Shown here one piece after another: positions 46,840-57,438 of a DNA stretch of 64,000 nucleotides. Under the pieces are notes generated by a model. It was not told where the DNA came from, searched no databases, and worked only from the letters and a program-made list of their open reading frames with translations. Source of the DNA: Poseidonia sp. (GTDB taxonomy: Archaea; Thermoplasmatota; Poseidoniia; Poseidoniales; Poseidoniaceae); assembly GCA_030829545.1 (NCBI GenBank), contig JAURAI010000001.1, positions 70,234 through 134,233 on the forward strand, given 5' to 3'. The position numbers and the translations under genes are program-made. Position 1 is the first letter of the stretch; each line of letters begins with the position of its first letter.

Positions 46840-47181
46840 ATGTTGCAACGTCTTCTTACCGGATTCCTTCAACAGGAAGGCGTAGAGCAAGCCGTGATGT
46901 TTGACGAACGTGGCCGCCTCATGGCGAGTGTCGGTCGGCAAGGCCAACTACCAGCCCTCGAAGACGCCATAGCACTCACATCAGCGGCCTTGAGTGCTTG
47001 TGTTGAACACGAGCTGGGAGACCTCTACGAAATCTGGTCTGAAGGCGAACAACGAACGATGATCGACGTCATTACCCCCTATCGTATTTTGATGCTCAAG
47101 GGCCAAGGTGGCCGTCTTGCACGCTGGCGGCACAGCGTTGACCATCGCCGACGTCAATTGGCCACTACCCCCGAATTTTAG
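46840..47181 (+). CDS. Roadblock/LC7 (MglB-like) domain protein, standalone (113 aa)
   Basis: Size and pattern AVMFDERGRLMASVGRQ...LPALEDAIALTSAALS are consistent with the alpha-beta-alpha Roadblock fold. It directly abuts the next gene (stop/start adjacent). Confidence 0.5.
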   Translation: MLQRLLTGFLQQEGVEQAVMFDERGRLMASVGRQGQLPALEDAIALTSAALSACVEHELGDLYEIWSEGEQRTMIDVITPYRILMLKGQGGRLARWRHSVDHRRRQLATTPEF

Positions 47182-50100
47182 GTGAATACTATGTTTGAAC
47201 TACCCAAAGGAACGCCTGTTACCAAAGAGATTTCACTCGCTGAGGGTCATCTACAGCCCTTCGCCCACGGCGCTATTACAAGTTACATCGGTCGACGAAA
47301 AACACCGAGTGCCCATCGTTTGGTGCGTGGTGGACGCATCGTTGGTTGGATTGCGGAAGATAAGGACAAGGGCGTGATGCTTGGAGGTAGCGAAGCCCGT
47401 ATTCAATTGGAAGCCATCGAAGCCGAAGGAAAACTTCGCCTGGTTGGAAACAGGTACACTTTGAGTGGCCTTGGAGGGATTGCTGAGATCATTCCAGAGG
47501 CCTTTGAACACCAAGCAGACCGGCAGGGGTTGAGAGCCAGCACCAATTACGTTGCACGTTTACTGGCAAGGGACCTCTCGATGGTTGTAAAGACGCTTAT
47601 TCTTGATCCAACCGTGCGAGGCGCTATTGCTATTGACGGAGGCATGCTCATCGACGCTGCAGGTGACCTGCCTGGCTTTGGAGAGGAAGAAGCACTCGCA
47701 TCTCACGTGTATGACCTTCTTTCAAACATGCGAATGGAGGACCGCCCTCATCTCGCTGTCAAAGGACAAGGTCACTGGATTTTGCATACCGAAGAGGGAG
47801 CGCTCTTGCTCGCACAAAGCGGAGATATTGCACTTGCAGCTTGGACTGAACGTGATGCGAACCATGCTCGATTACTTTCTGCCACATCAACCGCTTTATC
47901 CGGCGATGTAGCATCTGCGGGTGAAGATGGAACAAAACTCCCTGAAGGGTTTACCCTGCGAGAAGGCCGTGGTGGTCCAGACGCCATTGTTTCCATGTTG
48001 AAGGCAGGCCTCCAAGAAGAAGTAACCGGCCATATTCAGTCGGGAAGTTCAAGCAAAGCTGTTTCATTGGTGCTGTCACAAGGTGTACCCGTTGCACTCT
48101 GGGCGCCTTCCGTCGACGACGAGACAGAAGCACTCCGATTGCTTACCGAGCCAAAGCGAAAGGTCCGTCTTGTTCGGCTACCTGCGGGCACCATCGTTAC
48201 CGCTCGTTCTGGGACAATCGCCTCGTTTTCTCTTACTGGTTTCATTGACCAGTTAGCCACCATCCGCACGCGTTCAGAAGCACGCCAGGAATCGTTGAGA
48301 GCCGCCCTTACCGACATGCTAGGATTCGAAGCAGGTATTGAGCAATTGCGGACTGAACGTGCAAAGTTAGCGTTCAAAACCGACGGCATGGAATCAGCCG
48401 TTCCCCTTCAGGTCATGCAAGAACAAGCCGTCTCGGCTGTGGATGAAGGATTGCGTCGCCGCCTGGAGAAATCGGAACAAACCGTGTCGGCATTGAACGC
48501 CTCCATCGCTGTACTCGAGGGTAAAATCAAGCAGTTAGAAACCAAGAAAGATGCAGCACAAATTGTTGCAAGAGAGGCCAGTGAAACACGACAAGAGCAC
48601 ACTGTCGCAATGGAAAACGCTCATGCACAACTCAACACGATGCAGGTTGACCTTGCACAATCAAGAGCCACTTCAGAAGAAGCAACGGCAAGGGCTGAAC
48701 GGTTGGTTCGAAGAGTGAATGAACTCGAGCATCAAGTCAGCGAGCGTGCGGCAGAATTAGCAAAAGCCATCGGTGAAGCAAGTTCGAGCGCAGAATTACA
48801 AAGCATGATCGAAGAACTCTCCCTCAAGGAAGCAGAGTTGCAAGCCAATTTGGGCGAAGGAAGTCAACGATTGACGACCATACGCCAGCAAAGCGATGAT
48901 GAAGAACGCCGATTGCGAGTTTTGACCGAACAAGTCAGCACCACTCGCGAGCGACATGCTCGGGCTCAATCCGACCTTCTCAGCCTGCAGGAACAGGTCC
49001 ACGTCCAACAACTTGAACTTGAAGCGGCTCGATTGGAGGAAAAGAAATCCCGAGGCCACGCTGACGAGGACCGCCGACGTCGTGCTGAAGAAGAAGCGCG
49101 ACGCTCCAACACCGAGGCTGAACTACGTGAATTGATGAATGAACGACGGCAAGTCCTCCGAGAATTGGGTGACTTGGGTGCCCGAAGAGGGCATGCTGAA
49201 GCAGAATTAGCCTCGCTTGTCGAGAAGGCCACCGACTTAGCCACCGCTCACGAGGAAGCCCTTGCCGATATACAAGAAGCAGAGCGCCTGCGTGCCCGGC
49301 TTGCCGAAGAACCACTTGCTCAGGCACTCCTCGACGATAACAACACCTTCCAGGGCCTTGGCCCCGTGTTGGAGCGACTTGAACACGCTCGAGAACTCGG
49401 ATATTCTGTGACGATGCTCGACAGGGCTGTTGAGCGAGCCTTGCAGGTGATTCAATCAACGGTTGATCAAGTTGCCGCAACACCTCGTCACCTGCTTTCT
49501 TCGGAAGTGATGACGCTCTTGGAACGACAGGTCCCTCAAACTGCAGGAGCCGTGCGAGGACTCGCACGCTGGTCAGTTCAGCAGCGTCTTGAACTCCAAC
49601 TTGGAGAAACAGTCAATCACCTTGTGCTTGACCTCGAACACCTTCTCGAGGATTACGACCGCTCGATTACAATGTTACGCCGAATCCGAAACGTGCTTGA
49701 ACAAATCGAGCGATTGGGGGCACCTGAGCATGAAGTCCACGCCCTCATGGCCAATTGTCAACGCCCAGAGGCGCTACCGAGTCTCGCCCTTGGAACGCGT
49801 AAGTTGATTCAAGTTGCTCTTGATGACATCTACCTTGAGGCAGACCAGCGCGATGCGGGAGAAGCGATTGGACTGGAAGAAACCGCCCGGGTCCTCGAAG
49901 AACTCATCACGCAACTGGATGCTTCAGGACTGACTGACGGCCGTCCACGCGGCATGCTTTGGGAATTCCAGCGGGATGGGTTGCTGCCCTTCGAGCGAGA
50001 TGCCATTCCTGCTGAACAACGTCTTCCAGTCGACGAAGGAATGCTGCACGCTTTGGAACCACACCTCCTTGCATCAGAGGCCTTAGAGGCCGTAGAGGCA

Positions 50101-50364
50101 CCTGCCGCAGAAGCCGTCGACAGTGACGGGTGGTCTGAACTTCCTGCGCCGAGCGACGATGCTGTCCATGCGGCGGTTGAATCTTCATCCCCTGCCACGA
50201 CCTCCCATGATGACCTGGACGACGAGAGAGCGAGACTCGAAGCAGAATTGGCCCGCATTGATGCAGAATGGAGTCATCGTGACGTACCCGCAGGCAACAC
50301 GCCTGTTCCTGCTGATGCTGCCCTCACAGACCTTGAGGCCCGGCTTTCAAACATTGACTTTTGA
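47182..50364 (+). CDS. Giant (1060 aa) protein: 2-3 N-terminal Roadblock/LC7-like modules + ~500-aa coiled coil (SMC/myosin-tail-like) + acidic C-terminal domain
   Basis: Modules at ~aa 1-110, 115-215 (RGAIAIDGGMLIDAAGDLPGFGEEEALASHVYDLLSNM) and 225-330. Residues ~380-900 are almost pure heptad E/A/R/L/Q sequence. The C-terminus is D/E-rich. Confidence 0.5.
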   Translation: MNTMFELPKGTPVTKEISLAEGHLQPFAHGAITSYIGRRKTPSAHRLVRGGRIVGWIAEDKDKGVMLGGSEARIQLEAIEAEGKLRLVGNRYTLSGLGGIAEIIPEAFEHQADRQGLRASTNYVARLLARDLSMVVKTLILDPTVRGAIAIDGGMLIDAAGDLPGFGEEEALASHVYDLLSNMRMEDRPHLAVKGQGHWILHTEEGALLLAQSGDIALAAWTERDANHARLLSATSTALSGDVASAGEDGTKLPEGFTLREGRGGPDAIVSMLKAGLQEEVTGHIQSGSSSKAVSLVLSQGVPVALWAPSVDDETEALRLLTEPKRKVRLVRLPAGTIVTARSGTIASFSLTGFIDQLATIRTRSEARQESLRAALTDMLGFEAGIEQLRTERAKLAFKTDGMESAVPLQVMQEQAVSAVDEGLRRRLEKSEQTVSALNASIAVLEGKIKQLETKKDAAQIVAREASETRQEHTVAMENAHAQLNTMQVDLAQSRATSEEATARAERLVRRVNELEHQVSERAAELAKAIGEASSSAELQSMIEELSLKEAELQANLGEGSQRLTTIRQQSDDEERRLRVLTEQVSTTRERHARAQSDLLSLQEQVHVQQLELEAARLEEKKSRGHADEDRRRRAEEEARRSNTEAELRELMNERRQVLRELGDLGARRGHAEAELASLVEKATDLATAHEEALADIQEAERLRARLAEEPLAQALLDDNNTFQGLGPVLERLEHARELGYSVTMLDRAVERALQVIQSTVDQVAATPRHLLSSEVMTLLERQVPQTAGAVRGLARWSVQQRLELQLGETVNHLVLDLEHLLEDYDRSITMLRRIRNVLEQIERLGAPEHEVHALMANCQRPEALPSLALGTRKLIQVALDDIYLEADQRDAGEAIGLEETARVLEELITQLDASGLTDGRPRGMLWEFQRDGLLPFERDAIPAEQRLPVDEGMLHALEPHLLASEALEAVEAPAAEAVDSDGWSELPAPSDDAVHAAVESSSPATTSHDDLDDERARLEAELARIDAEWSHRDVPAGNTPVPADAALTDLEARLSNIDF

Positions 50365-50618
50365 GGTGGCCCATAATGACCGAGGCAACCACGCTCATGG
50401 GACGAACTGAAGAGCGAGAGAAAGCATACCCGTTGTGGATTGAGCGGGTTCTTCTCCTTGTTGCAGGAGTCGTTGTTATTCTCTATTCTCCAAAGATAAA
50501 CGCATCTATTGACCATGCGTGGATGGGGCCATTCGTGGCCTACATCGCTGTTCCTTTGGCATTGCTCGCTGCTGTTGAATTGATGGGCCGTTTTGTCCAA
50601 GGACGGCAAGGCTCATAA
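50361..50618 (+). CDS. Small 2-TM membrane protein, overlapping the stop of the giant coiled-coil gene (operon partner)
   Basis: 4-nt overlap. Two hydrophobic helices (LLLVAGVVVILY, VAYIAVPLALLAAV). Confidence 0.4.
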   Translation: MRWPIMTEATTLMGRTEEREKAYPLWIERVLLLVAGVVVILYSPKINASIDHAWMGPFVAYIAVPLALLAAVELMGRFVQGRQGS

Positions 50619-51830
50619 TTGACTGAAATCCTTTGACGCAGGCTCTGGTTCAACCAGATTGCTACGTGATTGTATCAATCCAATGACACGCTGCCAAGGG
50701 ATAAAGAAACGGAGAACAGCCATCAAGCTCAAGAATAACAAAGCTGAGATGACCAAGCCATAGGTCAATGTCAATTCAATCGATTCAGAGACTTGACCCG
50801 CCCATTGACTTCCCGTGGTATCCGATACAATAGTCAACAAGACCTTGTGGAAGCCAAGAGCCACCATCGTGGCAATACCGGTTAATCCGAGGAACAGGAA
50901 AGTGTGTCTCAAGTGCGTGTTGAGGACGTTGTCCATTTGGCGGACATATTCCGGGTCACGCTTGCATGATTCAGGGAGTCGGAAAGCGTATTCGAGGTTG
51001 CGAATAACGCCGTAACTTGCTTCCTGGAAAACCATGATCAAAACGGCGATGAGGATGAGATTGAATTGCTCTTGCGTCACCAATTTAAGCCCGAAGAGAC
51101 CGATGGTTGGATCTGAAGTTTGGCTCTCAAGGACGGCAAGTGTTCCTCCGTAGGACCCCAATTGCGATTTGATGAGCGGGAAGGTCAGGATGGCATGTAT
51201 TCCCAAGAACAGGAGGGTGAATCCAATCGCCCAGGCGATGGAGCGGCGGGACAGACCCCATATTCCTCGAGTGCCCATGATAACGGGGAGGAGATAAATG
51301 AACATGATGAGCAGTGACATGATCATCAATAAGGGCCACTGAAGTGTTTGCAATTCTGAATCAGTGGGCAAGCGTAAATCAAAGGAAAAGAGCATGCCGG
51401 CCAACCACGAGAGAGTCAGACGACCGATCAGCAAAACGATGAGGCCGATAATGAAACCCAATTTGATACGTTGCTGGACCTTTGGTATTTGGAATGCGAG
51501 GAAGGCCATTGCACCACCGAGGCTCAGTCCGAGGACCATGGGGACAAAGAAACGGGCAAGGCCTGAGCGACCTTCTCCAGTGAGCCAATCACCCAAGGGT
51601 AATTGGTCGGAGATGAGCAATTCAATGGTATCGAAAAGAATCGTGTGGTCGATGGAGCCAACAACATAGGTAGAGACCACTTCGAGGTACATTCCAATCA
51701 AGGCTACCGTTGCAACCACTTGCAGTGTAATGATTTGCCATTGGCGACGGAGGTTCTTGAGATGAAGCGTACGTGGACGCGCCGTTCCTTCAAGGAGGAC
51801 ATCTGACTGAAGACCAACTTCACCTGCCAT
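50613..51830 (-). CDS. Polytopic membrane protein (about 10 TM), terminal gene of the DUF4350-DUF58 cluster
   Basis: Hydropathy. Its start sits 2 nt after the upstream DUF58 gene. Confidence 0.45.
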   Translation of the reverse strand: MAGEVGLQSDVLLEGTARPRTLHLKNLRRQWQIITLQVVATVALIGMYLEVVSTYVVGSIDHTILFDTIELLISDQLPLGDWLTGEGRSGLARFFVPMVLGLSLGGAMAFLAFQIPKVQQRIKLGFIIGLIVLLIGRLTLSWLAGMLFSFDLRLPTDSELQTLQWPLLMIMSLLIMFIYLLPVIMGTRGIWGLSRRSIAWAIGFTLLFLGIHAILTFPLIKSQLGSYGGTLAVLESQTSDPTIGLFGLKLVTQEQFNLILIAVLIMVFQEASYGVIRNLEYAFRLPESCKRDPEYVRQMDNVLNTHLRHTFLFLGLTGIATMVALGFHKVLLTIVSDTTGSQWAGQVSESIELTLTYGLVISALLFLSLMAVLRFFIPWQRVIGLIQSRSNLVEPEPASKDFSQL

Positions 51831-51831
51831 C

Positions 51832-53085
51832 TTAGTACCCCCTTACCTGCATCAATGCCTGTGATAAATCCATGTCAGGCATCCAATCGATGACCTGTGC
51901 GCCTGAACCTGCCAAGGTGGTCAAACGATTCTGACGTTCCAGTTTGAGCACTTCGTAGGACATACGAGGAATACGGCTGACCAAGCGTTCAAAGTCAACG
52001 CTTGAAGGTGACAGGACCGTGACTTCGTGGCCTCGTCCTACCAAATCACGTACGGCGGCAGGAACGGTTCCATCGCCTTCACACGATGAGATGATGAAGA
52101 CAGGACTTCCCCTGCTAAATCGCCCACTCAGAGAGTTTGTGACCGCTTGAAGGGGCATTTCCCCTTTCGGTGTAACGCCTGCAAGGGCGCTGAGGATTTT
52201 GAAATACTGCTTGTCACCCGTATCGGGAGGAAGGTAGGATAGTTTCTCGTCGTATATCGCCAAAGCAACCGAATCTCGACGTTGCAGGAAGAAGGCTGCG
52301 AGACTGGCTGCAGATACAGTACCCATTTCGAGAGGATTCTTGAGAACCGTCCCAATACGCGCCAAATCACGACTGTCCAAAATCAAGAACAGGTCTGTTA
52401 CGGCGTCACGGCACTTTTCGTTGACCATCAGTTCGCCGGTACGAGCGTATGCTTTCCAATTGATATTCTTGAACGGGTCTCCGGGAACGTATTCCCTTAG
52501 TGAGTAGAATTCAGAGCCTTGTCCTGGTGTTCTTAGCGTGGTAGCACCGGTGTACATCTTAGGGGTACGACTTCGCAAAAATGCTTCTTCAATGTCCTTG
52601 ATTTGCGGGAAGATGACGATATCGCTGTGGTGGTCAACATACATCTCTTCAACGCCGAGGTTGAAGGTATTGCGAGCCCGGAGGGACACTGGGCCAATGG
52701 AATAGTGGCCGCGCAGTGGGCAGCGTAGAACGTAACGAATGCGTGCGCTCTCGCCTGGTTTGAGGTTCAATTGCATCTGATTGAGTCCACTTCGTAGTTT
52801 CATTTCATGAGGAATGTTATCGTAAATATCCAGCATCTGAGTTTTCCGATTGCTGCGGTTTGTTACGAGCAGTTCAACGTAGAGGTCGTCGCCCTTGTAC
52901 AAATTGTCGGCAGAAAGAGTGCGCTGTACTTCGACATCACCGTGGCCTGAAATCCATGAATTCACGACGATAAAAGCAACGAGGCTCAATCCGAGGATCA
53001 TCATTTGTTGATTGGAAATCATCATCCCAATCAGGACCAGAGCAATCCCTCCAGTGAAGGTAAATGCTGCTTTACGAGTCCACAT
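51832..53085 (-). CDS. DUF58 family protein (vWA-like, MoxR-operon associated)
   Basis: GSEFYSLREYVPGDPFKNINWKAYARTGELMV matches the DUF58 signature (REY..GD..R.I.WKA.AR). It has an N-terminal TM pair. Confidence 0.7.
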   Translation of the reverse strand: MWTRKAAFTFTGGIALVLIGMMISNQQMMILGLSLVAFIVVNSWISGHGDVEVQRTLSADNLYKGDDLYVELLVTNRSNRKTQMLDIYDNIPHEMKLRSGLNQMQLNLKPGESARIRYVLRCPLRGHYSIGPVSLRARNTFNLGVEEMYVDHHSDIVIFPQIKDIEEAFLRSRTPKMYTGATTLRTPGQGSEFYSLREYVPGDPFKNINWKAYARTGELMVNEKCRDAVTDLFLILDSRDLARIGTVLKNPLEMGTVSAASLAAFFLQRRDSVALAIYDEKLSYLPPDTGDKQYFKILSALAGVTPKGEMPLQAVTNSLSGRFSRGSPVFIISSCEGDGTVPAAVRDLVGRGHEVTVLSPSSVDFERLVSRIPRMSYEVLKLERQNRLTTLAGSGAQVIDWMPDMDLSQALMQVRGY

Positions 53086-53094
53086 GATACCACC

Positions 53095-54810
53095 TCACTG
53101 ACGTCCCCACGCCTTGATTCGTTTGACCAGAGCAACCGTTTGTTCAAGCGTGTATCTGTTGCTTGCTTCAACGGCGAATTTAGCCAACACCGGGTCGTTG
53201 ATCATCGAAACCAACTCGTTTGCCTTCATCGCTTGGAACTCTTCTCGATTCAACCCGTTCTGGTTACGAACCTTGGAAAGGAAGACTTGGCGAATTTTCT
53301 CCACTTTGGAGTAGTATGCATACCGGTTGGCATCACCAAATCCATAGTAGATGATGCTGAAAACGTGGCGCCAAGGTTCAGGGTCACGTTTCTTGATGAG
53401 GACCGCTTCAAAGGTGATAAAGAGAATCAGGAAGAGAAGAAGCATAGCAAGTCCTTCTCCTGTGAAGTAGACCAAGAGGAAGTAAACGGTGTTGTAAGAA
53501 TCAGCAGCCAGTGCGCTTTGGGGGTGGCGTGATTCGTCAAAGATGACCATGGCGTTTTCTGCGGGTTGTCCTTCCTCACCGATCAGTTCGCTCATCAGGG
53601 CTTCTGCAATGAAGTCAAGTGCCCATTTACGATTGTCATTCTGAGGCATCAAGGTGGCTGTTTCACCGTACTCACCATCGTTGAACCCTTCATAATCGTA
53701 CATGGCATTGATCAGCGCAGAACCATCGGCGATGAACAAAACACGCCCTCCGTCACTTGGTGAACAACTTGCCCTCGCACACGCTTCGATGCTGAGGTTG
53801 AATTGACCCCAGCGGTCGGGAGTCTCAGGTGTGATTTCATTGCCAACCCAGATTTCTCCATCACCGTTGACGTCAACGGTAGCCTCGTTGCTGGTAAGAG
53901 CCCGTATGGCAACTTCGGTCAATGGACCTCTCACTCCTGGAATGACTTCCAATCCAGTAATGTTGTTGAGCAACATTTGGTAGGTTGCGTTGTATTCAAC
54001 GATGCCGCCTACGAGATGGTGAGCGCACAAGCCCGCTTGGGATTCAGACAAACTTTGACCGTCAAGTTTTGCACACGGGTGCTCACCAGGCCCGTCTGGC
54101 ACACCCCATCGACTGTGAGTGGAGAGGGTTGTTGGGTCAACTTCGGTGCCGTTCATTCCGCAAGGATTGGACTGGACGCACATCCAGATGTAATTGTAAT
54201 CAAGTTCAGCGACGTATGTTGTGTCAAAGACCTGTTCACCAGTATAGCGAATTCCAAAGGCCTCAGCGATGGTGTTGGCATATCCGTAATCCTCGAGAAT
54301 GAGGGCTGTGCCGCCCGCTTCAACAAATTCAACAATCGCATTGATCTCTGAAGGAGAAAACCCATTGCCAGATGCGATCGTGATGAAACCATCTTCGTCA
54401 AATTGAGGCAAGGTGAGGGTGTCACGTTCAACACCTGCGAGGACGTAGGTCGTGTTACGTGGGTCCTCGATATCGGCGAGCAAAAGTGGACTGCTCACCA
54501 AAGAACGGGTGTCGATATTCATGGCGCGGATGTCTTCACGGAAGGCTGACATATCGTTCCAATCATCGTCATAGGCTGATAGTTGGTTGGTGGCACTGAT
54601 GTTGATGAAATTCGACATAATCGTGAGAAGAAGAATCAACATTACTCCCCAAAACGAAGCTTGGAGGGCGAGCCTCCGAGCGTTGAAATTGGCGGGGAGT
54701 CCTAGCATGCACATCACAAGGGATAAGGTTCCCAAATCAGCACGGGCTCCTATGACTTTAGAAGGTTGTCCACCTTCGTGGAGAAAATGCTCATCTCCAT
54801 TCGAGCGCAA
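53095..54810 (-). CDS. DUF4350/GldG-like extracytoplasmic protein with N- and C-terminal TM anchors
   Basis: AIVEFVEAGGTALILEDYGYAN resembles the DUF4350 core. Signal-anchor at the N-terminus and TM helix LLVYFTGEGLAMLLLFLILFITF near the C-terminus. Confidence 0.45.
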   Translation of the reverse strand: MRSNGDEHFLHEGGQPSKVIGARADLGTLSLVMCMLGLPANFNARRLALQASFWGVMLILLLTIMSNFINISATNQLSAYDDDWNDMSAFREDIRAMNIDTRSLVSSPLLLADIEDPRNTTYVLAGVERDTLTLPQFDEDGFITIASGNGFSPSEINAIVEFVEAGGTALILEDYGYANTIAEAFGIRYTGEQVFDTTYVAELDYNYIWMCVQSNPCGMNGTEVDPTTLSTHSRWGVPDGPGEHPCAKLDGQSLSESQAGLCAHHLVGGIVEYNATYQMLLNNITGLEVIPGVRGPLTEVAIRALTSNEATVDVNGDGEIWVGNEITPETPDRWGQFNLSIEACARASCSPSDGGRVLFIADGSALINAMYDYEGFNDGEYGETATLMPQNDNRKWALDFIAEALMSELIGEEGQPAENAMVIFDESRHPQSALAADSYNTVYFLLVYFTGEGLAMLLLFLILFITFEAVLIKKRDPEPWRHVFSIIYYGFGDANRYAYYSKVEKIRQVFLSKVRNQNGLNREEFQAMKANELVSMINDPVLAKFAVEASNRYTLEQTVALVKRIKAWGRQ

Positions 54811-54811
54811 T

Positions 54812-55060
54812 TCATTGATTGAGGTGAATTTTAGCAGCGATTCTTGAGATTGAGGAAGATGGGATCTTCACCGTGCTTTGATCGTGCTCAAAAGGAAGGG
54901 CTGAGGGGTCAACCGTTGCTTCAACACTCACGACGAGATCACTGAGCATACCGGTGTTGAGGTCAAAATGAATGTCTTTGAGGTGTCCAAGGAGCGCACC
55001 CGTGCGGTCCACGACCTCTCTTCCAATCACTTCCCGCCCGAAGATTGCCATGATTGTCAC
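54812..55060 (-). CDS. PRC-barrel domain protein
   Basis: 82 aa, VIGREVVDRTGALLGHLKDIHFDLNTGMLSDLVV matches the PRC-barrel pattern. Only 1 nt separates it from the downstream DUF4350 gene. Confidence 0.5.
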   Translation of the reverse strand: MTIMAIFGREVIGREVVDRTGALLGHLKDIHFDLNTGMLSDLVVSVEATVDPSALPFEHDQSTVKIPSSSISRIAAKIHLNQ

Positions 55061-55118
55061 CCCGCTGTTAAAGTTCCAGCGAAGGAATCCCTTGAATGCG
55101 TCGGTTGGTGAAGCGACA

Positions 55119-57347
55119 TCACATCGTTTCCATGCCGCGGCTGAAGTCTCGGTTTCGCTTGATGTTCGTCAAACCAGAGGTGAGGCGTGTTTCCATCTTT
55201 TGGTAGTATTCCAGCATGTCAGGGGTAACGGTTGGACGAACTCGAGAAATTGCTTCCTCAAAGTGGGCCTTTGTGACCTTCTTCTTGTTGGCACGCATGC
55301 AGATGAGAGCCGCTTCTCGGCAAACTGCTTCGATGTCGGCTCCAGTGAAGCCGTCCATACCTGTCAGGATGTCCTTAAAGGAGAACTTGCTCAGAGGCAT
55401 GCCTTCAGAGTGAATGCCAAAGATGACCTCACGAGCTCCAGCATCGGGCGGGGGCACGTGCAGCACACGTTCAAAGCGGCCGCTACGCAAGAGGGCAGGG
55501 TCAATCATTTCGGGACGATTGGTCGCAGCAACGATGATCACGCCATCAAGCGATTCAACACCATCCATACTGGCCAATAACTGGTTCACAACACGGTTGC
55601 CCACGTCGCTTCCCTCAGAGGCGCTTCCACCACTTCGCATGCTCGCAATGGATTCAAACTCATCAAGGAAAATGATGGAAGGCGAGGATTGCTTTGCTTT
55701 CTTGAAAATTTCTCGGATAGCTCGTTCAGATTCACCCACCCACTTCGAAATCAATTCTGGGCCTTTGATGCTGATGAAGTTCGCTTGTGCTTCGTTAGCA
55801 ATGGCCTTGGCCAAGAGAGTTTTACCCGTACCTGGTGCTCCAAACAGAACAATTCCTCGCGGTGGTTTGATTCCAAAGTGTTCGAACAAGTCTGGCTTGG
55901 TAAGCGGCCATTCAACCGATTCCTTGAGGCGGTCTTTGACCTCGAGCAGGCCACCGACTTCTTCCCAAGAAACCTCGGGAACTTCAACGTAAATCTCACG
56001 GAGCGCTGAAGGTTCAACATCACGAATGGCTTCTTTGAAATCGTCCATGCAGACTTCCATCTTTTCAAGGACCTCTGGAGGCAGTGTTTCCTCTTCAAGG
56101 TCGATTTCGGGGAGGTATCGGCGCAAAGCACGCATGGCCGATTCGCGGACCAAGGCAGCGAGGTCGGCCCCAACAAAGCCGTAGGTATTGTCGAGAACCC
56201 AAGAGATGTTAAAGTCATCTGAAATCGGCATTTGGCGGGTGTGGACATCCATGATTTCACTTCGTCCTTCACGATCGGGCACGCCGATTTCGATTTCTCG
56301 GTCAAAGCGACCGGGTCGTCGCAGGGCTGGGTCGAGTGCGTCTCTTCGGTTGGTGGCACCGATGACAACGACGTTGTCTCGACCTTGCATACCGTCCATG
56401 AGCGTGAGCATTTGCGCGACAACACGTCGTTCAACTTCGCCCGATACGTCTTCACGCTTGGGGCAGATGGAGTCGATTTCGTCGATGAAGATAATCGCTG
56501 GAGAATTTGCCGATGCTTCGTCAAATATTTCTCGGAGCTGCTTTTCTGATTCACCGTAATACTTTGAGATGATTTCAGGTCCGTTGATACTCTTGAAATG
56601 AGCGTTTACCTCGGTTGCAACAGCCTTGGCAATCATCGTTTTACCTGTCCCTGGTGGGCCGTGAAGGAGAACTCCTTTCGGTGGGTCAATGCCCAATCGG
56701 CGGAACAATTCAGGATGCTTGAGCGGCAGTTCAATCATTTCACGGACCTTGAGGAGTTGTTGGCCAATGCCTCCAACATCTTCGTAGGTGATGCCTTCAG
56801 ATTGACCGACATCTTCCTCGGCAACCGCTTCATCTTTGATGATAATCTCGGTGTCAGTCGTGACTTTGACAATGCCTTTTGGAACGGTTTGAACGACGGC
56901 AAAGGGAAGCGCTTCAGCAAACAGTGTCATCCCTGGAATGAAGATGCGATCGCCTGCGACCACAGGCCGTTTGGCGAGGCCACGCTTGGCAAAGCCTTCA
57001 ATGCCCGGCCCAAATTTGACTTTCTGCTTGTTCGCCATCACAGGAGAGATGGTCAATTTGGTGCACTCCTTGGCTTCGACTTTTCGAACTGTCACACGGT
57101 CACCGAGGCTGACACCAGCGTTTTTGCGGATGATACCGTCAACTCTGATGATGTCCATTTTTGCATCCTCGGGCCGGCTACGCCAGTAAATGGCAGCAGT
57201 GGAGCGCTCGTCCCCACTGATTTCTACAATGTCACCTGGCTTGAGGTCAAGACCCATCTCAGAGGATATGCGGGCTCGGCCGTGACCCACGTCAGATGGT
57301 ATGGCCTTTGATACACGTACTTCAATGGATTTGTCTTTGTCCGCCAT
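55119..57347 (-). CDS. cdc48: CDC48/VCP/p97 AAA+ ATPase (double AAA domain plus N-domain)
   Basis: Two Walker A GPPGTGKT and GAPGTGKT, two Walker B DE, second-region-of-homology arginines, and an N-terminal double-psi barrel region. Confidence 0.95.
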   Translation of the reverse strand: MADKDKSIEVRVSKAIPSDVGHGRARISSEMGLDLKPGDIVEISGDERSTAAIYWRSRPEDAKMDIIRVDGIIRKNAGVSLGDRVTVRKVEAKECTKLTISPVMANKQKVKFGPGIEGFAKRGLAKRPVVAGDRIFIPGMTLFAEALPFAVVQTVPKGIVKVTTDTEIIIKDEAVAEEDVGQSEGITYEDVGGIGQQLLKVREMIELPLKHPELFRRLGIDPPKGVLLHGPPGTGKTMIAKAVATEVNAHFKSINGPEIISKYYGESEKQLREIFDEASANSPAIIFIDEIDSICPKREDVSGEVERRVVAQMLTLMDGMQGRDNVVVIGATNRRDALDPALRRPGRFDREIEIGVPDREGRSEIMDVHTRQMPISDDFNISWVLDNTYGFVGADLAALVRESAMRALRRYLPEIDLEEETLPPEVLEKMEVCMDDFKEAIRDVEPSALREIYVEVPEVSWEEVGGLLEVKDRLKESVEWPLTKPDLFEHFGIKPPRGIVLFGAPGTGKTLLAKAIANEAQANFISIKGPELISKWVGESERAIREIFKKAKQSSPSIIFLDEFESIASMRSGGSASEGSDVGNRVVNQLLASMDGVESLDGVIIVAATNRPEMIDPALLRSGRFERVLHVPPPDAGAREVIFGIHSEGMPLSKFSFKDILTGMDGFTGADIEAVCREAALICMRANKKKVTKAHFEEAISRVRPTVTPDMLEYYQKMETRLTSGLTNIKRNRDFSRGMETM

Positions 57348-57438
57348 ACTGTTCTCTCCTGTCTATTTTTGTTGATACTTTGACGGTATATTAACGCACG
57401 CCATCAAGGATTTCGCCCCGCATCGGAAGGAATAACCT

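Follow-up and report, generated by a model that had tools for sequence, protein, structure and literature searches.

The Bat (aerotolerance) operon of Bacteroides and Leptospira combines MoxR and DUF58 with BatA-E, and neither DUF4350 nor the polytopic membrane protein that we call Y is known to be a Bat component. DUF58, which the locus described here shares, is also the hallmark partner in operons of the MRP subfamily of MoxR ATPases, such as mycobacterial moxR1-DUF58-vWA and the Bifidobacterium PFNA arrangement of AAA-ATPase, DUF58 and transglutaminase; its role is stated as unknown (PMC12067865). The described MRP-subfamily cases differ from our locus in that they are bacterial, always include MoxR and usually include a separate vWA or transglutaminase protein, and the DUF4350-Y pair is absent from them. 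A separate and frequent archaeal gene neighborhood places Cdc48 beside a PRC-barrel gene (Zhao et al., bioRxiv 10.1101/2023.03.28.534520); neither that study nor the other literature we searched reports a link between CDC48-PRC and DUF58 or DUF4350.

We analyzed a 64-kb stretch of DNA (hereafter, the window) from the marine archaeon Poseidonia sp., a member of Marine Group II, in which a preliminary description had read the string CDC48, PRC-barrel, DUF4350, DUF58 and polytopic membrane protein. Profile searches confirmed its gene content and order (Table 1). CDC48 scored 980 bits against TIGR01243 (cut-off 802.65), placing it in the CDC48/VAT family, and the PRC-barrel protein scored 37.4 bits against PF05239 (cut-off 21.2, E 2.5e-9). 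The DUF58 and DUF4350 assignments were borne out as well, with 70 bits against PF01882 (cut-off 23.4) and about 36.2-36.4 bits against PF14258 (cut-off 30.4). The terminal membrane protein, Y, has no Pfam or NCBIfam match, and a Pfam scan of 18 Y-family members at E values up to 1 brought up no family that recurred among them; hydropathy predicts about eight transmembrane segments for it instead of the ten first proposed. The locus resembles the Bat operon in having a MoxR-associated DUF58 among membrane-protein genes, but the label BatA-type does not suit it: Pfam scans of all five proteins found no BatA/BatB-type vWA or TPR proteins, and the locus differs from Bat in being without BatA/BatB vWA-TM, the TPR proteins BatC/BatE, and BatD.

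Table 1. Features of the CDC48-PRC and DUF4350-DUF58-Y genes (positions within the window).
Feature	Position	Strand	Length	Remarks
CDC48/VAT-type double-ring AAA+ ATPase	55119-57347	minus	742 aa	TIGR01243; CDC48_N, CDC48_2, two AAA plus AAA_lid_3 domains
TATA-like box TTAATATA	57387-57394	minus		~40 nt upstream of CDC48 start
AGGAG Shine-Dalgarno of CDC48	57356-57360	minus		
Stand-alone PRC-barrel protein	54812-55051	minus	79 aa	PF05239
PRC/DUF4350 spacer	54709-54811	minus	~103 nt	Two conserved non-coding blocks
Conserved non-coding block ATGAGCATTTT	54784-54794			Within PRC/DUF4350 spacer
Conserved non-coding block GGACAACCTTCTAAAG	54756-54771			Within PRC/DUF4350 spacer
DUF4350 membrane protein	53095-54708	minus	537 aa	PF14258
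DUF58 protein	51832-53085	minus	417 aa	PF01882
Polytopic membrane protein, Y homologue	50613-51830	minus	405 aa	~8 TM

The string is two units, CDC48-PRC and DUF4350-DUF58-Y (hereafter, module B), not one. The genes had been described as 1-2 nt apart, which holds for the junction between DUF58 and Y (1 nt) but not for DUF4350 to DUF58 (9 nt) or PRC to DUF4350. A 1-nt gap at the latter junction is an artefact of choosing TTG 54810 as the start of DUF4350; the relatives share a start at ATG 54708, with a GTGAT/GGTG Shine-Dalgarno sequence ahead of it. The three module-B genes lie 0-17 nt apart across loci, and the spacer ahead of them measures roughly 70-135 nt across four lineages. Its two blocks are kept by MGIIa species that have reached saturation at synonymous sites, whereas the rest of the MGIIa spacer varies in sequence and length, and TCTTAAG is retained in the MGIIb spacer. 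The blocks are thus candidates for an internal promoter or terminator region, and read-through from CDC48-PRC into the trio may occur. A sigma-70 and intrinsic-terminator scan, which is not applicable to archaea, returned shuffle-level hits only. Upstream of CDC48, TTTAAAT, TTTAATA and TTTAACT boxes occupy the site equivalent to the TATA-like box in three other Poseidoniales lineages, suggesting that the box is a promoter element.

The first unit looks like the archaeal Cdc48-PRC neighborhood, in that a stand-alone PRC-barrel gene lies directly downstream of a Cdc48-family ATPase; what differs is that here the pair happens to abut a MoxR-less module. In the window, PRC starts at ATG 55051, preceded by GGGGTGA and 67 nt past the CDC48 stop, and in MGIIb it follows CDC48 by 8-9 nt with a GAGGT Shine-Dalgarno sequence, such that the two are translationally coupled. 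CDC48 is a housekeeping AAA+ unfoldase, with the small PRC-barrel protein as its putative partner. Against the PDB, the latter gave weak matches to PRC-barrel structures (1pm3, E 0.011; 8qzo, E 0.086). A comparison with the CdpB-type cell-division PRC-barrel proteins (Haloferax CdpB1-3) was limited to a profile match to the generic PRC domain. PRC evolves fast, with a dN/dS of 0.19-0.30 against more distant species, 10-100x the DUF58 rate, and is 60-68% identical in amino acids where the DUF58 proteins of the compared loci reach 98% identity. Hypervariability was considered and rejected, as the compared loci are about 80% identical in DNA and are thus different species; PRC is simply under weak constraint.

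The second unit is kin to MoxR operons, as the preliminary description had proposed. The canonical Thermoplasmatota order is DUF4129/X, DUF4350, MoxR, DUF58, Y, and in every relative examined, namely four Thermoplasmata lineages (L090, L092, L093 and L095) and a second Poseidoniales locus that we call module A (L096-L123), MoxR lies between DUF4350 and DUF58. The nearest relatives, with DUF58 identities of 37-43%, carry MoxR immediately upstream of DUF58 and, where the flank suffices, DUF4350 ahead of MoxR and a membrane protein of about 300 aa after DUF58. Outgroup gene context was obtained by a representative-protein search followed by exact-protein look-ups. Homology with the corresponding proteins of module A and of the outgroups holds for each of the three module-B proteins. 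Compared with the canonical operon (L090, L093, L095 and module A), module B has the same order and strand of DUF4350, DUF58 and Y, the same transmembrane hairpin plus vWA-like DUF58, the same two-TM DUF4350 and the same pattern of conservation, with DUF58 slow and DUF4350 and Y fast. It differs in having no MoxR between DUF4350 and DUF58 and no upstream DUF4129/X surface protein, in a Y about 100 aa longer at the N-terminus, and in its position directly behind CDC48-PRC. A PRC barrel takes the place of X, whose outgroup counterparts bear Ig-like repeats and DUF4129; blastp found no X homologue in module-B loci. Module B forms its own clade and is not nested in module A. Homology and gene order make it an ancient paralogue of this Thermoplasmatota operon.

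As first described, MoxR is locally absent: the only AAA+ P-loops in the window are the two of CDC48, and three MoxR (AAA_3) proteins used as tblastn queries matched neither the window nor any of 89 orthologous loci. Such an absence beside DUF58 is unusual. MoxR is directly upstream of DUF58 in 56 of 58 unrelated DUF58 loci and the other two are orphans, in a baseline made up of the ordinary DUF58 loci returned by a metagenome scan for fusion proteins. DUF4350-DUF58 fusion proteins exist elsewhere; that scan found none with a single protein query, and an alignment query gave ordinary DUF58 loci only.

Looking beyond the window, as the preliminary description had suggested, we found that the lineage is not MoxR-less: module A is a canonical X-DUF4350-MoxR-DUF58-Y operon. 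Some of its proteins are listed by NCBI under ‘Candidatus Poseidonia alphae’ and ‘Poseidonia sp.’, and the GC content of Poseidonia MoxR loci in module-A context (50.6%) is close to that of the window (51.8%). Both DUF58 paralogues occur in one MAG (locus-tag prefix CMB13). Module A was seen in the genus Poseidonia and sister MAGs, not on the window's own genome. A scan of genome contigs with a DUF58 alignment returned relatives of at least 93% identity only (genus Poseidonia). The MoxR of the lineage is 90-95% conserved. We found no mention of MoxR in the Marine Group II literature searched, nor of any of these genes in a Poseidoniales transcriptomics paper. As to anti-phage MoxR-vWA conflict systems, the PADLOC defense profiles gave no match for PRC, DUF4350, DUF58, Y or module-A MoxR and only generic AAA matches for CDC48.

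One could suppose that module B has been degenerating since a MoxR deletion, as it has lost the MoxR and DUF4129/X genes and its DUF4350 has weak Pfam scores. However, module B is intact, with complete open reading frames, in all 88 loci with enough flank, spanning two families. Its genes have dN/dS values of 0.003 (DUF58), 0.015 (DUF4350) and 0.018 (Y) at a dS of 0.6-0.8, and the orphan DUF58 is more constrained than CDC48 (0.013). Between MGIIa and MGIIb, module-B DUF58 is 77% identical, equal to the 75% of CDC48. This selection analysis refutes decay, which we consider scarcely credible: module B is functional and under strong purifying selection.

The proteins themselves point to a membrane complex, with topologies that are predicted. 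By hydropathy, DUF4350 has two transmembrane segments, the first of them N-terminal, that flank a Cys-rich ectodomain (~370 aa), and a cytoplasmic tail (~95 aa) follows the second. The protein aligns over nearly its full length with counterparts in canonical MoxR operons (22-27% identity; blastp E 1e-16 to 1e-29). Module-B Y aligns with the module-A Y family over about 160 C-terminal columns (hhalign probability 92%, E 6e-7), and the motif ES(V/I)EL..(T/V)YG is common to module-B, module-A and outgroup Y proteins; a single-sequence structure model of Y was unusable (pLDDT 49). DUF58 has a transmembrane hairpin, an Ig-like beta-sandwich, a conserved signature loop and a vWA-like domain predicted to be cytoplasmic. 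Its AF2 model (pLDDT 85, pTM 0.76) matched, by Foldseek, the vWA domains of Rpn10, CMG2 and CLCA1 and the TRAP-beta and complement MG sandwiches; we found no solved structures related to DUF58 by sequence. Module B keeps 43 of 50 family-conserved DUF58 columns and the whole signature PGxGxEFxxLRxYxPGDxxxxINWKAxARxGxLxVNE. At two charged positions conserved in subfamily relatives it is altered (E64K and R257V/I), changes that could mark an altered partner interface.

The preliminary description also raised the idea that CDC48 stands in for MoxR. In full, this would be a non-orthologous displacement in which CDC48, with PRC as its adaptor, replaced MoxR for the module-B DUF58, with all five genes acting as a single functional unit. 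The adjacency, whose absence in relatives would have spoken for coincidental synteny, is indeed kept across the order, with CDC48-PRC-DUF4350-DUF58-Y in invariant order in 88/88 loci of both families and all five genes on one strand. Only the MoxR-less paralogue shows this association (0/34 canonical loci), the DUF58 vWA domain resembles that of Rpn10, and the two charged-position changes are specific to module B. Yet about 12 unrelated flanking genes, including SDH, aldehyde dehydrogenase, a coiled-coil protein and TtuA, are equally syntenic, and the adjacency is therefore not specific to the five genes. It is uninformative because of this syntenic block, because CDC48-PRC is a known independent pair, frequent in other archaea without DUF58, because CDC48 and PRC are missing from the 34 canonical loci, and because a conserved spacer with regulatory-looking motifs splits PRC from DUF4350. 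Also against displacement, the lineage keeps its highly conserved MoxR, the MoxR-family signature of DUF58 is wholly retained, and PRC evolves far faster than DUF58, unlike a tight adaptor. We regard displacement as improbable; that the CDC48-PRC pair took over from MoxR in driving a paralogous membrane complex of DUF58 in Poseidoniales seems very doubtful indeed. As a complete, MoxR-bearing sister copy exists elsewhere in related genomes, CDC48 is most likely a mere neighbor.

A further alternative is that DUF4350-DUF58-Y has taken on a new function without AAA+ remodeling, for example as a static membrane scaffold or sensor. Such a change would fit the loss of two of five canonical components (MoxR and DUF4129/X), the low-frequency occurrence of orphan DUF58 without MoxR elsewhere, the separate clade of module B and its lineage-specific substitutions. 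On the other hand, module B keeps the signature loop and almost every residue that is invariant in the family, and DUF58 is as constrained as in the MoxR-linked paralogue (77% identity between MGIIa and MGIIb, vs 76% in module A), which speaks for a molecular activity that has not changed. The same lineage, moreover, has a MoxR available. We consider loss of ATPase dependence unlikely, if still a serious candidate.

We favor, as reasonably probable, a model in which module B encodes a MoxR-less paralogous complex, separate from CDC48-PRC and relying in trans on the MoxR of module A. Module B's own MoxR gene, placed between DUF4350 and DUF58, would have been deleted before the MGIIa/MGIIb split, while Poseidoniales retained the full operon as module A. 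Module B would form a three-part complex in the cytoplasmic membrane, with DUF4350 contributing a large domain that faces outward and a tail in the cytoplasm, DUF58 a hairpin anchor with its Ig-like and MIDAS-less vWA-like domains in the cytoplasm, and Y a polytopic partner. The two altered charged residues of DUF58 and the missing DUF4129/X component weigh against this model. Most likely, a single, extremely conserved module-A MoxR hexamer would serve the two DUF58 complexes by way of the signature loop and vWA domain that module B retains, sparing module B the need for a dedicated ATPase gene.

The finding adds no new kind of system, and it cautions that conserved adjacency should not be equated with an operon where synteny is strong throughout the genome. 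A CDC48-PRC takeover, if true, would amount to one AAA+ clade displacing another non-orthologously, with the change fixed in one of the ocean's most abundant archaeal lineages, and would provide the first defined membrane substrate of archaeal CDC48-PRC. Few prokaryotic gene pairs without a known mechanism are as widespread as DUF58 and MoxR. Poseidoniales offer a natural experiment, with two paralogous DUF4350-DUF58-Y complexes in one small genome, one with MoxR and one without, and thereby a testable question: whether one MoxR serves several DUF58 complexes in trans or DUF58 can act independently of MoxR.

The genes named in the preliminary description, namely CDC48, a PRC-barrel protein, DUF4350, DUF58 and a membrane protein, are present in the order given there, and profile matches uphold its DUF58 and DUF4350 assignments. 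Searches of the last protein against Pfam and NCBIfam profiles gave no match, and its hydropathy indicates about eight transmembrane (TM) segments rather than the ten first counted.

Features of the locus and its surroundings in window coordinates
Feature	Position	Strand	Profile match or remark
CDC48	55119-57347	-	TIGR01243, 980 bits; CDC48_N, CDC48_2, two AAA modules
PRC-barrel protein, 79 aa	54812-55051	-	PF05239, 37.4 bits
DUF4350 protein, 537 aa	start ATG 54708	-	PF14258, 36.2 bits (cut-off 30.4)
DUF58 protein	51832-53085	-	PF01882, 70 bits
Hydrophobic membrane protein, 405 aa	50613-51830	-	open reading frame
Convergent trio, 85-aa two-TM ORF	50361-50618	+	without Pfam family
Convergent trio, 1060-aa coiled-coil protein	47182-50364	+	weak SMC/Rad50-like matches; without Pfam family
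Convergent trio, 113-aa ORF	46840-47181	+	without Pfam family
Large ORF, 586 aa	42184-43944	-	without Pfam match
Large ORF, 851 aa	39628-42183	+	without Pfam match

The spacing, by contrast, differs from that first described. Gene starts and spacers were compared over the window and three other deep lineages, L055 (CM001443.1), L087 of MGIIb, and L089 (MGIIa and MGIIb are two families of Poseidoniales, the Marine Group II archaea). PRC starts at ATG 55051, with a GGGGTGA Shine-Dalgarno in front, and in MGIIb only 8-9 nt separate it from CDC48. A TTG one base past the PRC stop was rejected as the DUF4350 start in favor of the conserved ATG 54708, which is preceded by a GTGAT/GGTG Shine-Dalgarno. 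The spacer between PRC and DUF4350 is about 103 nt in the window and about 70-135 nt across the four lineages, whereas the gaps that follow are 0-9 nt (DUF4350 to DUF58) and 1-17 nt (DUF58 to the membrane protein). Thus, the tight operon comprises three genes, not four or five. Within the spacer, MGIIa species whose synonymous sites are saturated (dS > 1.5) keep two blocks, ATGAGCATTTT (54784-54794) and GGACAACCTTCTAAAG (54756-54771), while the remainder varies in sequence and length; TCTTAAG is kept at the same position in MGIIb. We infer that these blocks form a putative internal regulatory (promoter) region. On the other strand, the convergent trio (46840-50618, +) is kept in both MGIIa and MGIIb, and its 85-aa ORF shares 6 nt with the end of the membrane-protein gene.

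No MoxR was found in the window. The only Walker A motifs of AAA+ type there belong to CDC48, consistent with the earlier claim that this is the only AAA+ ATPase nearby, and tblastn with three MoxR proteins as queries gave no match, either here or across 89 orthologous loci. The baseline was a set of 80 unrelated DUF58 loci in metagenomes (soil, gut and others), of which 58 have at least 1.5 kb upstream. MoxR lies directly upstream on the same strand in 56 of these 58, and thus its absence here is real and, although not without parallel, uncommon. The other two loci hold orphan DUF58 genes from non-marine metagenomes (L161:5866-7227 and L172:2959-4230); MoxR-less DUF58 genes turn up sporadically in other places. 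One of the two orphans adjoins an outer-membrane beta-barrel protein gene.

An exhaustive cluster-representative search yielded 16,893 DUF58 relatives. Poseidoniales orthologues share at least 67% identity, and the next clusters only about 40%. The closest of these (43%) is also from Poseidoniales and is part of a full operon, module A, which consists of X (about 310 aa), DUF4350, MoxR, DUF58 and Y, the membrane protein 3' of DUF58. Module A is flanked by xanthine-dehydrogenase-like genes on one side and aspartokinase/shikimate genes on the other; in L096-L123 it is always directly 3' of xanthine-dehydrogenase/CO-dehydrogenase-like genes (Fer2, MoCoBD, FAD_binding_5), with the aspartokinase and shikimate-pathway genes always downstream. 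In each of four outgroup clusters looked up (Thermoplasmata/Thermoplasmatales by name), MoxR is immediately 5' of DUF58, and DUF4350 is upstream of MoxR in the three contigs long enough (L090, L093, L095). An ORF lies just 3' of DUF58 in all four: a membrane protein of about 320 aa in L090 and L093, a shorter one (273 aa) in L092, and one cut by the contig end in L095. In L090 and L093 the product of the gene 5' of DUF4350 is large, has Ig-like repeats and carries DUF4129 at its C-terminus; the protein at that position in L095 is of CARDB/Ig-like type and without DUF4129, and the domain instead belongs to a transglutaminase-like protein encoded by the next gene upstream. The canonical Thermoplasmatota operon and module A therefore place MoxR between DUF4350 and DUF58, whereas the window trio, module B, has none there.

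Each of the three module-B proteins is a homologue of the corresponding protein in module A and in the outgroups. Identity is 38-41% for DUF58 and 22-27% for DUF4350 (E 1e-16 to 1e-29), and the membrane protein matches the Y family by hhalign (probability 92%, E 6e-7), with which, outgroup Y included, it shares the motif ES(V/I)EL..(T/V)YG. In a neighbor-joining tree whose deep branches are poorly resolved, both modules fall within one Thermoplasmatota subfamily, module B as a separate clade not nested in module A. Taken together, the tree and the homology mark module B as an ancient paralogue that lost its MoxR by deletion. It is a new, MoxR-less version of an operon type already known. Single-chain DUF4350-DUF58 fusions occur in other organisms, which by Rosetta-stone reasoning points to a joint function of the two; P0200, P0201, P0221, P0227, P0234, P0245, P0246 and P0256 (about 730-760 aa) carry DUF4350 at the N-terminus and DUF58 at the C-terminus.

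The notion that module B is a decaying operon is refuted by its conservation. All five genes are intact and in order in 88 of 88 orthologous loci with enough flank, and in comparison with a relative whose dS is below saturation (0.6-0.8), dN/dS is 0.003 for DUF58, 0.015 for DUF4350 and 0.018 for the Y-like protein (CDC48, 0.013; PRC, 0.035). Between MGIIa and MGIIb, DUF58 identity is almost equal in the two modules (77% for B, 76% for A), and in both the other components diverge much faster. In 28 other subfamily members, 50 DUF58 columns reach at least 85% conservation, and module B retains 43 of them; E64K and R257V/I are among the changes. Those 28 cover every lineage whose neighborhood was checked, and each such lineage has MoxR. 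The signature PGxGxEFxxLRxYxPGDxxxxINWKAxARxGxLxVNE is intact. A CDC48 that one metagenomic contig carries as two ORFs (L005:5738-7967) and a truncated membrane-protein frame in CM001443.1 (L055:11254-12481) are probably assembly or sequencing errors, not biology.

Could CDC48 functionally replace MoxR? The juxtaposition does involve precisely the MoxR-less paralogue, the single point for such a link, and the adjacency is kept in MGIIa, MGIIb and one 67%-identity lineage. However, the flanks are equally syntenic, with succinate dehydrogenase, a 270-aa ORF and aldehyde dehydrogenase on one side and the 85-aa ORF, the 1060-aa coiled-coil protein, the 113-aa ORF and TtuA on the other, so the adjacency does not single out CDC48. 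Many archaeal PRC-barrel genes adjoin Cdc48 genes (Zhao et al., bioRxiv 10.1101/2023.03.28.534520), which makes CDC48-PRC a known pair in its own right. Across 407 kb of canonical and module-A sequence (34 loci), CDC48 and PRC are both absent, and the evolutionary rate of PRC is 10-100 times that of DUF58. These observations and the conserved spacer favor two juxtaposed units, and we consider replacement by CDC48 very improbable. Against more distant species, the PRC gene has a dN/dS of 0.19-0.30, versus 0.01-0.05 in its neighbors, and only 35% amino acid identity between MGIIa and MGIIb, versus 75% for the adjoining CDC48. The original observation of this gene string is largely sound apart from its spacing, and its interpretation survives in part.

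MoxR is, however missing locally, present in the lineage. Poseidoniales MoxR proteins share 87-100% identity across both families, and their NCBI names include 'MoxR family ATPase [Candidatus Poseidonia alphae]' (P0494) and '[Poseidonia sp.]' (P0502, P0507). Six contigs (GC 50.6%) carry P0494 in module-A context; GC is 50.1% at the module-B locus of Ca. P. alphae UBA255 (L022) and 51.8% in the window. Both DUF58 paralogues occur in one MAG (locus-tag prefix CMB13). The MoxR core is 90-95% identical over the whole order, and the Poseidoniales proteins (e.g. L118:6001-7128) begin with about 50 aa of low-complexity, Pro/Ala-rich sequence, an N-terminal extension absent from Thermoplasmata relatives.

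The AlphaFold2 model of module-B DUF58 (pLDDT 85, pTM 0.76) shows an N-terminal TM hairpin, a beta-sandwich like TRAP-beta and complement MG domains, a low-confidence segment that is the most conserved signature, and an alpha/beta domain matching the vWA of Rpn10, CMG2 and CLCA1. Residues 176-228, which hold the signature, are the sole low-confidence region (pLDDT 42-60) and may fold only upon a partner. At the MIDAS position, DxSxS is replaced by D-S-R (D..R throughout the family). From their positive-inside distribution, the sequences suggest a cytoplasmic location for the soluble domains of DUF58 and for the tail of DUF4350, with the Cys-rich domain of the latter on the outer side of the membrane.

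A role for vWA partners of MoxR is established in other MoxR subfamilies (PMC12067865). We propose a model in which module B would form a membrane complex of the canonical DUF4350-DUF58-Y type, with its vWA-like DUF58 as client or adaptor of a MoxR hexamer. We are confident of the evolutionary and structural parts of this explanation and, on balance, favor it as a whole; that module B instead works independently of an ATPase seems unlikely. More tentatively, with roughly even prospects at best, the MoxR of module A would be the most likely ATPase, acting in trans on both complexes of Poseidoniales.
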